From a virus (Duplodnaviria; Heunggongvirae; Uroviricota; Caudoviricetes), in IMG/VR virus record IMGVR_UViG_2531839529_000008: 23,343 nt of DNA. One strand, written 5' to 3'. Each line of letters starts with the position of its first letter. Position 1 is the first letter of the stretch. The position numbers and the translations under genes are program-made. This document shows positions 2,725 through 5,229 of the stretch, piece by piece. The notes beneath the pieces were generated by a model that worked only from the letters and a program-made list of their open reading frames with translations, searched no databases and had not been told where the DNA came from.

Positions 2725-2892
2725 TCAGGCGGCTTGGTGTTCTTTCAGTTCTTCAATTCGAATATTGGTTACGTCTGCATGTGCTATCTGCGCCCATATC
2801 ATCCAGTGGTTATAACAGTCGTTGATGTTCTCTGCTTCGATAACCCTGTTGAATGGCTCTCCATTCCATTCACCTGTGACTCGGAAGTGCAT
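2725..2892 (-). CDS. Small hypothetical protein (55 aa), at the position of the lambda 55-codon ORF just upstream of xis
   Basis: Hand translation of the minus strand: MHFRVTGEWNGEPFNRVIEAENINDCYNHWMIWAQIAHADVTNIRIEELKEHQAA; below the 60-aa track cutoff. Confidence 0.45.
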   Translation of the reverse strand: MHFRVTGEWNGEPFNRVIEAENINDCYNHWMIWAQIAHADVTNIRIEELKEHQAA

Positions 2893-2975
2893 TTATCATC
2901 TCCATAAAACAAAACTCGCCGTAGCGAGTTCAGATATAATTTCCACCAAAGGCAGTAGTTGCTTGATGCTAAGAA

Positions 2976-3404
2976 TTATTCAATATCTATTCCTGTAATA
3001 TCTTTTATCTTTTTCCTTGCAAAGCCTTTTGCTAGTGATTTTGAAACACTCATAAGTGTACTAATTCCCTCATCCTTAAAGTTTGTTTTTATAGCTTGCC
3101 AGACATCCTTTTGACGTAAGTCAGCAATAAAATCATGCCCTCTTGCTGTCAACCTCAGTGGTACTTCGATCCAACTATATCCAACACCTTCCCCTAACGC
3201 TTTGGACAATATATGACCGAACCCAGGTTTTCCATCAACCCTGACTATTAATTCGTAGTCACATAATAATCGCATATGGAAAATAAAATCTTGGTCATAT
3301 CTATTAAAGCCATTATCCTCTAGTTCACTAAGCATCGTGTCAGGGCCACGAGTTTTTTCGAATGCGATAAGTAGATCTTTTAGATATTGCTGGTCTAATT
3401 TCAT
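2976..3404 (-). CDS. Hypothetical protein (142 aa), AT-rich accessory gene in the ea region
   Basis: Track ORF; GGAGG Shine-Dalgarno about 6 nt upstream of the ATG at 3404; function not recognised. Confidence 0.6.
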   Translation of the reverse strand: MKLDQQYLKDLLIAFEKTRGPDTMLSELEDNGFNRYDQDFIFHMRLLCDYELIVRVDGKPGFGHILSKALGEGVGYSWIEVPLRLTARGHDFIADLRQKDVWQAIKTNFKDEGISTLMSVSKSLAKGFARKKIKDITGIDIE

Positions 3405-3432
3405 TGCCGCCTCCGTGACATGTCACAGAGAT

Positions 3433-3771
3433 TTATATCATTAATTTTGTTTCGTGCCAGCCTTTGGTCACCCAGCATTGTGAGTCACCATTACACGGGC
3501 ATGAATTAACAGGAACTCTCTCGCCGCACTTACCGCACCGTTTTCTGCTGATCGATTTTATACGCCAGCGCACACGTGCATCATCCTGGCGGCTCAGTAA
3601 CGCGATGTACTCACCAAACTCGCAAGGCGCACGCCTGAAGCGACGCGTGGCACAGTTACGCTCCAGCATTTCAATTTCCTGAGCATCAAGTACAAGCTCC
3701 AGCTTACGCATACCGGATGATGCTTGCTTGGCTCTCTGATCGGCTTTGTGCTCTGTTGCTGATTTAGCCAT
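3433..3771 (-). CDS. Hypothetical Cys-rich putative zinc-binding protein (112 aa; alternative start at 3711 gives 92 aa)
   Basis: Track ORF; C-terminal cluster CGKCGERVPVNSCPCNGDSQC; AGGA upstream of the ATG at 3771; only 28 nt upstream of the 2976-3404 gene, suggesting one operon. Confidence 0.55.
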   Translation of the reverse strand: MAKSATEHKADQRAKQASSGMRKLELVLDAQEIEMLERNCATRRFRRAPCEFGEYIALLSRQDDARVRWRIKSISRKRCGKCGERVPVNSCPCNGDSQCWVTKGWHETKLMI

Positions 3772-3965
3772 TCTGCTTTTCCTGCATCAGGAGAAAGACA
3801 ATCATGGCGGCGCGGATACTTCCGGTATCTTTTTACGCGATATTCCCCTTCAATGGCACATACAAGAAGAGAGCCATCAACAGGAGTGATTGAGGAATCG
3901 ACAACCAGCAACGCTTAATTATCTATAGTGTCGTATTTGCTTCATAAAATATGGCGAATAACACA

Positions 3966-3998
3966 AAGCCCGCAGCAGCTCATTGTGCGGGCTTTTCT
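3966..3998. terminator. GC-rich hairpin (gcccgca...tgcgggc) with a T-rich tract on the plus side; candidate terminator bounding the 4065-4679 gene
   Basis: Inverted repeat read directly at 3968-3992 followed by ttttctta; direction ambiguous. Confidence 0.35.
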
Positions 3999-4064
3999 TA
4001 TACCTACTTCCTAGAGATAATTCTATGGAGGCATTAAATCAATACTGTCATTGGTAATATCATA

Positions 4065-4679
4065 TTATCTAAAAGTCTTTCCACTTTTAACATCTAGGTA
4101 TATTCTGTTCGACAACGTCATTCCTCCGCAATATGTGAAATAGATGTTTTCACCCTTATTGCTTGATGCCATCCACCCTCCGATTTCCTTAAAATCGCTT
4201 TCCGTGCAGACCCCTTCATTTATTAACTTCCTAGCTGCCGAAGAAAACTCTTTTTTGTATATACGGTAGTCATCAGATCCTTTGATTAAAGTATCATCTC
4301 CGCTCGCATTTTCAGCAGGATCTGATGGCCTTTCACTGCTAAGATCACTAAGTTTAACCCATTCTGAAAACTTGCCATTAACGATTCCATTTTTTCTTGT
4401 GCAGGATTTATTACCTTCTTTAATATATTCGCTTTCCCCTCCAACACATGAGGCTGAATATGGCTCAGTTATACGAACCCATTCACCTTTTTTTTCTAGA
4501 AAATCTACGCCTTCCCTGAAAAATAGTTTCCCAGCCACTCCACATTTACTTGAAGGGCAGGTATGTCTTTCCGTTCGATCAACAACAACCCATAGTTTTG
4601 ATTCATTTTTTGCCATTGCCGATGGTATTTGAGATGAGACAATTAACGTAAGCCCTAAAATTAGTATTGATTTTTTCAT
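4065..4679 (-). CDS. Secreted or periplasmic Cys-rich protein of unknown function (204 aa)
   Basis: Track ORF; N-terminal signal peptide MKKSILILGLTLIVSSQIPSAMA with AMA-K cleavage motif; six Cys in the mature part; AAGGA Shine-Dalgarno 8 nt upstream; AT-rich. Confidence 0.65.
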   Translation of the reverse strand: MKKSILILGLTLIVSSQIPSAMAKNESKLWVVVDRTERHTCPSSKCGVAGKLFFREGVDFLEKKGEWVRITEPYSASCVGGESEYIKEGNKSCTRKNGIVNGKFSEWVKLSDLSSERPSDPAENASGDDTLIKGSDDYRIYKKEFSSAARKLINEGVCTESDFKEIGGWMASSNKGENIYFTYCGGMTLSNRIYLDVKSGKTFR

Positions 4680-4977
4680 TGTAATTTCCTTTTACTTTTT
4701 ACAAAGCGTTTAATCATGGCTGATTATCTCTAAGTGTAGTAACAGCCTTGTGCGAAACATGTTACCAAATCGCCATTTCAGTGTATCCGCAGTTAGGCTG
4801 CCACTTCAAGGATTCCTAATTACATGGTACGTAAGCGTAAAATCCCGTTGGTTGGCGGGTAATAACTCTGATCAAATCTCCCTTGTCTTTTGCTCTTACG
4901 TATGCAGCTCTTGTGTATTCAACCCAGGCCTCCAGTTCAGCAATACGCTTACTTCCATCCGAGATAACACCTTCTAC

Positions 4978-5229
4978 TCACGCTGCTCGTTGAGTTTTGA
5001 TTTTTGCTGTCTCCAGCTCAACACGCAGTTTCCCCACCGTTAGCGCAATATCCTCGTTCTCCTGGTCGCGGCGTTTGATGTATTGCTGGTTTCTTTCCCG
5101 TTCATCCAGCAGTGTCAGCACAATCGATGGTGTTACCAGCTCATGGAAAAGGTCCGCGTCAAATCCCCAGTTGTCAGGCATTGCCTGCTCTGCCGCTTCA
5201 CGCAGTGCCTGAGAGTGAATTACGCTCAC
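4978..5229 (-). CDS. Hypothetical protein (83 aa) at the lambda ea22 position, ending at an in-frame TGA that is followed by 53 further sense codons
   Basis: Track ORF; start overlaps the stop of the upstream TraR-like gene (ATGA); hand translation beyond the TGA (4819-4977) stays open and protein-like. Confidence 0.5.
   Translation of the reverse strand: MSVIHSQALREAAEQAMPDNWGFDADLFHELVTPSIVLTLLDERERNQQYIKRRDQENEDIALTVGKLRVELETAKIKTQRAA

Follow-up and report, generated by a model that had tools for sequence, protein, structure and literature searches.

A candidate prophage moron that joins an RNA I-like plasmid promoter and leader to a gene for a predicted periplasmic SH3b protein

The cassette and its prophage setting

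The stretch of viral DNA analysed here (the window; 23,343 nucleotides (nt), IMG/VR record IMGVR_UViG_2531839529_000008) is the left arm of a lambdoid prophage adjoining ybhC, on the lambda attB side. Our subject is a minus-strand gene within it that encodes a protein of 204 amino acids (aa), together with the signals that surround the gene. A preliminary description had picked out this open reading frame (ORF) as an independently transcribed moron for a secreted, cysteine-rich protein, placed in the early region of a prophage. Counted from ybhC, the minus strand carries int, xis, a small ORF, a DUF2513 gene, a 112-aa ORF, an S24/UmuD-like remnant and then the target gene; beyond it follow a frameshifted ead/Ea22-like remnant, TraR/DksA, exo, bet, gam, kil and cIII. 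This order was read from the annotation of an identical E. coli region and from phage Chlobot. Transcription from PL runs from cIII towards int, and the target lies in the PL-distal 'ea' region in the same orientation, so that the gene would be transcribed in lytic growth too.

The ORF is genuine. It matches PHROG 8310 ('unknown function') from end to end (1.8e-136), has 83 homologues in a large protein collection and, compared with a copy in E. fergusonii, shows nonsynonymous and synonymous divergences (dN and dS) of 0.056 and 0.749 (dN/dS 0.075), so it is not a chance reading frame. The gene is under strong purifying selection. A literature search on WP_000748282 returned no papers. The features first described around the gene were recovered in the window (Table 1): an AAGGA ribosome-binding site 7 nt from the ATG, six Cys in the mature part of the protein (C41, C46, C78, C93, C158 and C184), an AT-rich composition and a GC-rich hairpin 70 nt past the stop codon. 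The guanine-cytosine (GC) content of positions 3900-4950 is 0.37-0.40 (about 38%), compared with about 0.50-0.53 in the prophage on either side. The range originally proposed for the unit, 3961-4760, takes in the gene and the hairpin but leaves the promoter outside.

The gene sits in an insert. Homology to thousands of lambdoid prophages restarts at window position 4931, as seen with a wider query, and on the left flank other records match only the S24-peptidase remnant, at 3811-3911. Because homology stops on the 3911 side and restarts at 4931, we take the ~1 kb between the two gene remnants to be inserted DNA. An identical 901-bp stretch is found in 133 of 5426 complete E. coli genomes (about 2.5%) and in one sequenced phage, Chlobot, and only ~130 of the 4196 E. 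coli genomes that match the flanks have the insert. The sources of the carrier strains are mixed and include human, panda, pigeon, swine and wastewater. In E. coli FCI1, a sister prophage with the same attB, int/xis and Ea22/TraR genes has another exported gene in the slot that corresponds to window ~3912-4930 (2731-3429 of the FCI1 locus, L019). That gene is annotated as an 'LprI family lysozyme inhibitor' and has its own signal peptide, MKNILLASLLVASPGAFA; periplasmic cargo seems to accumulate at this position. At the right edge, ~107 nt separate the Ea22-like remnant from the cassette (4823-4929, minus strand). The reading frame stays open across them as far as a stop codon at 4816-4818, just 5' of the -35 hexamer, and may represent the C-terminal end of the interrupted upstream gene, now displaced.

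The E. fergusonii copy lies on a P1-like plasmid, so labelled from its P7-type C1 repressor, Cre-like integrase, Hot and HumD, and encodes a 90%-identical protein. Promoter, leader, gene and terminator stem are common to both loci. Similarity starts abruptly 143 nt 5' of the start codon, continues through the gene and comes back at the terminator stem, and outside these limits the two sequences cannot be aligned. Identity is 80% over the upstream 143 nt and 70% at third codon positions, against 31-39% in the flanks. The 127-nt region 3' of the gene folds with z = -2.6; within the hairpin the stem is kept in the E. fergusonii copy, and the loop and spacer differ.

Morons, in the Hendrix/Juhala definition, are the main route by which prophages change host phenotype; most of their products are of unknown function and their promoters have rarely been identified. 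Like lambda bor and lom and HK97 gp15, the gene studied here is an extra gene amid conserved phage genes that is present in some relatives only, with deviant composition, its own promoter and terminator, and a product that would act at the envelope. The cassette is replaced or absent at the same position in related prophages, its GC content departs from that of its surroundings, and both a promoter and a terminator can be recognized by sequence. It is an imported, AT-rich, self-contained unit whose anatomy fits the moron definition for every feature that sequence can address, much as the preliminary description of an independently transcribed moron had supposed. Unlike lambda bor and lom, the cassette has a product that is predicted to be a soluble SH3b protein.

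Independent mobility of the cassette was also considered, on the basis of 100%-identical copies on plasmids, and rejected. On C. freundii pA18-1 (IncA; L023, 6037-9227) and 15 other large plasmids, the identity extends over a prophage-arm fragment from DUF2513 to DUF1317 that includes the target. On these plasmids, from Citrobacter, Klebsiella and Enterobacter, the fragment sits by IS5 and Rac-prophage fragments, as expected of a hitch-hiking lambdoid piece beside IS5. The same records document a piece of E. coli prophage spreading between genera on large plasmids.

Table 1. Features of the cassette and its edges in window coordinates
Feature	Positions	Strand	Basis or remark
S24/UmuD-like gene remnant, left insert edge	3804..3911	-	PGAP pseudogene 'DNA repair protein, missing C-terminus'
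GC-rich hairpin AAAGCCCGCA...TGCGGGCTTT, putative intrinsic terminator closing the cassette	3965..3995	.	U/T tracts on both strands
Coding sequence, 204 aa, ATG start, predicted exported two-domain protein	4065..4679	-	PHROG 8310; RefSeq WP_000748282.1 in annotated E. coli copy
C-terminal ~70-aa alpha/beta domain, residues 135-204 (predicted); C158/C184; motifs SDD, GGW, YFTYCGG, NRIYLD	4068..4277	-	
SH3b-type (bacterial SH3) domain, residues ~27-112 (predicted), with Cys-bearing insertion (C78, C93) and C41/C46 pair	4344..4601	-	
Signal peptide, residues 1-23, predicted cleavage between AMA and K	4611..4679	-	Inspection and family N-termini
~93-nt 5' leader, apparently truncated RNA I	4680..4773	-	Consensus fold of window, E. 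fergusonii and L022
Shine-Dalgarno AAGGA, 7 nt 5' of ATG	4687..4691	-	Read from sequence; kept in E. fergusonii copy
Homology to ColE1-type plasmids: RNA I promoter and about the first 63 nt of RNA I	4709..4825	-	blastn; L022 alignment
Stem-loop II	about 4711-4726	-	Stem kept in three-sequence consensus fold
Stem-loop I	about 4737-4767	-	Stem kept in three-sequence consensus fold
Predicted transcription start	near 4773	-	RNA I of L022 begins 7-9 nt downstream of aligned -10
-10 hexamer TACACT	4780..4785	-	Kept in window, E. fergusonii (L020) and L022
-35 hexamer TTGAAG	4804..4809	-	Same hexamer and 18-nt spacing in E. fergusonii copy and ColRNAI plasmid L022
Frameshifted ead/Ea22-like pseudogene, right insert edge	4930..5181	-	PGAP annotation

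A promoter and leader related to plasmid RNA I

Homology searches connect the region upstream of the gene to a copy-control element of plasmids. A blastn comparison with plasmids gave 406 matching records. In 390 of these the identity is 60-90%, and at the head of this group stand small ColRNAI (ColE1-type) plasmids, which align with 117 nt of the upstream region at 81% identity (E 3e-19). In one of these plasmids (L022), the RNA I model RF00106 identifies RNA I at 2063-1962 (78.6 bits), collinear with window ~4772-4709 and with the two promoter hexamers just upstream. The plasmid similarity stops where the terminator stem of RNA I starts; at that point the cassette has AAAGGAA-N7-ATG. By this alignment, the upstream region appears to be an RNA I promoter followed by the 5' two-thirds of RNA I. 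As in ColE1/pMB1 RNA I, it has a -35 TTGAAG, an 18-nt spacer, a -10 TACACT and the first ~63 nt, comprising the single-stranded 5' end and stem-loops I and II. Unlike that RNA, the leader lacks stem-loop III, the terminator, and has a ribosome-binding site and an ORF instead, and the cassette has no nearby RNA II promoter or origin. RF00106 gave no match in the window at E <= 1 over 1.4 kb or at E <= 10 over 141 nt, so that the 47 bits or more expected of a three-stem-loop RNA I are not reached. As the model failed and only stem-loops I and II are left, we regard the leader as derived from RNA I rather than as an RNA I gene. Among PLSDB plasmids, none has an RNA I closer than ~90%.

Both hexamers and their spacing are exactly kept between the window and E. 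fergusonii copies, and the next 9 nt are essentially unchanged. The combination TTGAAG-18-TACACT is that of the RNA I promoter in pBR322/ColE1. ColE1-type plasmids have an RNA I promoter that is active in E. coli and drives a cI-lacZ fusion away from its native context (PMC11514452). Homology to an active RNA I promoter, hexamers that diverged copies have kept without change and the agreement with the pBR322/ColE1 combination together argue that the cassette promoter is probably functional, and the homology also yields a concrete predicted transcription start. Compared with morons such as lambda bor and lom or HK97 gp15, the cassette is distinct in having a promoter that homology traces to a plasmid copy-control promoter. 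To our knowledge, a plasmid RNA I origin has not been reported before for the promoter and leader of a moron.

How such a fusion could arise is suggested by a 5.3-kb ColRNAI plasmid of C. braakii (L021). It encodes a 64%-identical, 204-aa homologue (1783-2397) ~350 nt downstream of, and in the same orientation as, the plasmid's own RNA I (2744-2847), a layout that is a plausible precursor from which a deletion could produce an RNA I promoter-gene fusion. A cer/Xer site was considered as the plasmid-homologous element and rejected, since cer lies elsewhere in L022 (171-200). The prophage small RNA svsR, which sits at the 3' end of cI (PMC12803456), is unrelated. A further and less likely idea is that the leader has retained a trans activity of RNA I against the RNA II of related ColE1-type plasmids, through which the prophage would also interfere with their copy number. 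A prophage moron for an exported protein is of a known kind; what is unusual here is the apparently RNA I-derived promoter and leader, along with the unannotated domain family described below. The apparent fusion of a ColE1 RNA I promoter to a protein-coding gene suggests that phage cargo can obtain its expression signals by recycling the copy-control elements of plasmids.

The encoded protein and its family

The N-terminus reads MKKSILILGLTLIVSSQIPSAMA up to the predicted cleavage point and KNESK after it, with two Lys, a 12-residue hydrophobic core and Ala at -3 and -1. Signal peptidase I substrates have a positive n-region, a core of 10-15 residues and small residues at -3 and -1, and by inspection the protein offers MKK, SILILGLTLIVS and SQIPSAMA ahead of the mature K. 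The cleavable signal peptide of the preliminary description is therefore recognizable in all three of its regions, and N-termini across the family agree with it. A lipobox is absent from the 204-aa protein, whose first Cys is residue 41 and which scores 14.1 bits with Pfam LPAM_1 against a cut-off of 20; it is predicted to be neither a lipoprotein nor an outer-membrane protein.

The same picture emerges from relatives. Among 284 family proteins, 209 have an export signal or anchor: 135 have a type-I-like signal peptide, 52 a lipobox and 22 an internal transmembrane (TM) anchor. The remainder, without an export signal, are mostly fragments and truncated metagenomic ORFs. All 37 homologues of the 204-aa protein that were aligned have C158 and C184. 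Conservation of the remaining four Cys is 90% or higher; they form the pairs C41/C46 and C78/C93, of which the second lies on a 19-residue insertion, and the two most divergent homologues lack all four together. The family N-termini and conserved Cys pairs strongly support a predicted extracytoplasmic, disulfide-bonded family, in keeping with the exported product first proposed.

The mature protein appears to have two domains joined by a nearly invariant RPxDP linker. An AlphaFold model built from the 37-sequence alignment has a mean predicted local distance difference test score (pLDDT) of 90.4 and a predicted template modelling score (pTM) of 0.72, with pLDDT 91.9 for the C-terminal domain (hereafter C-domain), and in this model the N-terminal part adopts an SH3b-type beta-barrel. 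A Foldseek search of BFVD returned SH3b domains only, all at E > 0.01. Matches in the PDB to de novo TIM barrels, obtained when the protein sequence and profiles A1 and A2 served as queries, were rejected, as they were summed and no single stretch was significant; weak SH3b matches were returned besides. Unlike the SH3b domains of endolysins, lysostaphin and NlpC/P60 peptidases, the one in the target has no catalytic partner domain; it carries the 19-residue Cys-clamped insertion and would function in a Gram-negative periplasm. Export and association with peptidoglycan are well-supported predictions.

The C-domain appears to define a new, unannotated family. An exhaustive profile search returned 527 clusters (50% identity) that contain it, nearly all of them with the domain at the C-terminus, and Pfam searches with all 28 C-domain sequences (E <= 10) gave no recurrent family. 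It occurs as a stand-alone exported protein of ~100 aa, chiefly in alphaproteobacteria, or fused to signal peptide or lipobox N-termini, to a cytoplasmic Zn-ribbon plus TM helix, to SH3b or, in one case, to an ankyrin protein. No enzyme domain was fused to it among the architectures examined. In every architecture the C-domain is predicted to be tethered to the envelope, often with SH3b.

Relatives are carried by mobile elements of several kinds. Pseudomonas and Aeromonas have close relatives, with 57-69% identity. In Aeromonas the relative lies in the accessory region of a prophage, between antiterminator and holin genes, and those in Pseudomonas directly follow a tyrosine integrase in small islands. 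One such integrase-bounded island, of ~5 kb, is conserved (L003, 8806-12411; L006-L009): the homologue comes first, then a KilA-N-like protein and a 105-aa ORF, with a weak, sub-threshold DUF6971 match (~130 aa) and a 337-aa ORF among its further genes. PADLOC found no matches on this island, which may be a small satellite or defence island. Relatives are also encoded by 51 IMG/VR viral contigs. Judged from neighbouring ORFs, one phage has its relative in the gap between Rz and terminase genes, another has it beside a putative GH19-type endolysin and UmuDC, an alphaproteobacterial phage has it antisense within the head module, and a stand-alone C-domain is encoded near a holin-like gene. A family of at least 527 clusters thus appears to have been mobilized repeatedly by phages, plasmids and islands.

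Possible roles of the cassette and its product

On balance, we consider it probable that the cassette is a horizontally acquired moron with a captured RNA I promoter, and that its product is a Sec-exported periplasmic protein tethered through SH3b. A unit of ~860 bp (window ~3965-4822, minus strand) would have entered the PL-distal region of a prophage at attB-lambda, having captured its TTGAAG-18-TACACT promoter and stem-loops I-II from a ColE1-type plasmid, with the RNA I terminator replaced by AAGGA and an ATG. The captured promoter would fire constitutively in the lysogen, and the hairpin would halt cassette transcripts short of xis and int and let N-modified PL transcripts pass through. 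The product would be exported by Sec, cleaved by signal peptidase I and disulfide-bonded in the periplasm, where the SH3b domain, with the C-domain attached through the RPxDP linker, would hold it to peptidoglycan.

Several observations weigh against this reading, in its account of expression or of function. The promoter matches consensus at 8 of 12 positions with an 18-nt spacer, is weak by consensus alone and was not listed by a generic scan; as the gene is co-oriented with PL, a promoter of its own is not strictly needed. The gene also seems dispensable, because in E. coli PSS-16 an IS1 element (L152, 466-1857) cuts it into ORFs of 513 and 147 nt; NZ_OY754443 shows the same split match together with an IS1 transposase. 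The protein itself reaches only 16.2 bits (E 0.012) with Pfam SH3_3 (PF08239), below the gathering threshold of 27, a threshold that some homologues pass (32.8, 30.8 and 27.8 bits). No significant relative of the C-domain, by sequence or structure, was found in PDB and profile searches, which makes a binder or inhibitor role a guess. In Vibrio and the alphaproteobacteria examined, the family looks chromosomal and not like mobile-element cargo, so a general envelope role fits at least as well as defence. Clustering of neighbours across 77 genomic loci revealed no partner gene conserved across lineages, only clade-specific synteny (in Vibrio) and shadow ORFs, and PADLOC matched neither the 204-aa protein nor its neighbours.

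The main rival on expression logic builds on the first of these points. Here the RNA I-like promoter would be an inactive fossil and the gene a lytic accessory gene, transcribed only within the N-antiterminated PL operon, with a product that excludes superinfecting phage, as T4 Sp does, or conditions the wall before lysis. The shared orientation with exo/bet/gam/kil/cIII and int/xis, the imperfect promoter that the scan did not report and the location of relatives near lysis genes in several unrelated phages are all compatible with it. The hexamers and spacing have nevertheless been kept perfectly despite a dS of 0.75, the cassette retains its own terminator, and the gene lies antisense to the structural operon in some phages and also occurs on islands and plasmids that have no PL. 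We therefore regard transcription from PL alone as rather unlikely.

As to what a constitutively made, wall-tethered protein would do, we tentatively suggest that it acts as a binder or inhibitor and so alters the sacculus or shields it, for instance from muralytic enzymes, be they those of incoming phages, of bacteriocins or of effectors of the type VI secretion system (T6SS). We favour this role because the C-domain is never found with a catalytic domain, is always envelope-tethered and has been picked up repeatedly by phages, plasmids and islands. T4 Spackle (Sp), Ivy, MliC/PliC and LprI are phage or bacterial proteins that neutralize muralytic enzymes in the periplasm. The target resembles them in being a small exported protein that, as is often the case among them, would be disulfide-bonded, and an LprI-family gene holds the same slot in the sister prophage. 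However, no sequence or fold similarity to these proteins was detected, and the functional analogy is speculative: the 204-aa protein gave no profile match to Ivy, MliC/PliC, PliG, LprI or PADLOC defence proteins, no match in NCBIfam or PADLOC, and none to a known exclusion, defence or virulence family. If sacculus protection or phage exclusion were borne out, a peptidoglycan-level mechanism would be added to prophage-encoded defence in Gram-negative bacteria. A broader version is more doubtful: that SH3b plus C-domain forms a new class of peptidoglycan-tethered protection factor, spread by phages, plasmids and islands across Proteobacteria against muralytic machinery and made constitutive in enterobacteria through the RNA I promoter.

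The gene might instead encode an orphan immunity protein, with a C-domain that neutralizes a peptidoglycan-targeting toxin such as colicin M, pesticin or a T6SS amidase or muramidase, and an SH3b domain that positions it. A periplasmic location would suit such a protein, as would a small, disulfide-locked C-domain that also stands alone as a ~100-aa exported protein in many alphaproteobacteria and is carried by mobile elements, a small ColE1-type plasmid included; one Pseudomonas island even adjoins pyocin S/immunity genes. Yet these pyocin genes lie outside the integrase-bounded island, no linked cognate toxin gene was found in any of the 77 loci, and there was no match to known immunity families, which leaves this role improbable.

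An enzymatic role seems still less probable. In this proposal the C-domain would be a small enzyme whose substrate, to which SH3b targets it, is peptidoglycan or some other polymer of the envelope, with a polar set made up of S135-D136-D137, S172, T182-Y183 and N191, and the moron would remodel the wall. SH3b domains do normally go with catalytic wall hydrolases, and several of these polar residues are invariant or nearly so, stand-alone C-domains included; the architectures surveyed above pair the C-domain with no recognizable enzyme.

The domain content agrees least well with a factor for lysogenic conversion or virulence, along the lines that the preliminary description had proposed. This would be a surface or outer-membrane protein of the Bor/Lom/Cor type, acting in serum resistance, adhesion or receptor masking. 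Such a factor would likewise be the exported product of a prophage moron, and the lipobox in 52 of the 284 family proteins is in its favour. The target protein, however, has neither a lipobox Cys nor a beta-barrel of the outer-membrane kind, its recognizable domain is of a type that binds cell wall and not outer-membrane receptors, it matches neither Bor, Lom and Cor nor other known families, and the carrier strains come from no single source. The SH3b content points to the peptidoglycan layer and not to the cell surface, and we consider a conversion or virulence factor of this type very improbable.

Some neighbouring genes deserve mention alongside the moron. The window has a DUF2513 gene (2976-3404) at a distance of ~660 bp on the downstream side of the target, and in Marinobacter litoralis (L017, 6401-6763) a DUF2513 gene directly follows a stand-alone C-domain gene, with NERD, PIN and helix-turn-helix genes around. 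DUF2513 was nevertheless rejected as a partner: its proximity in the window and its adjacency in Marinobacter amount to a single independent co-occurrence among ~150 loci, and this is probably coincidence. Genes of the S24/UmuD type also recur nearby, as the remnant downstream of the target (window 3804-3911), an intact humD upstream in E. fergusonii (L020, 3681-4073) and a close umuDC in a Pseudomonas prophage (L144, 1144-2842); as they lie on differing sides of the target, they do not appear to have been transferred with it. Finally, the neighbouring 112-aa ORF (window 3433-3771, minus strand) encodes a basic, Cys-rich protein (CGKCGERVPVNSCPCNGDSQC) that looks like a zinc-ribbon DNA-binding protein, and the annotation of phage Chlobot names overlapping frames in this interval otherwise, as 'transcriptional regulator' and 'UmuD-like protein'.

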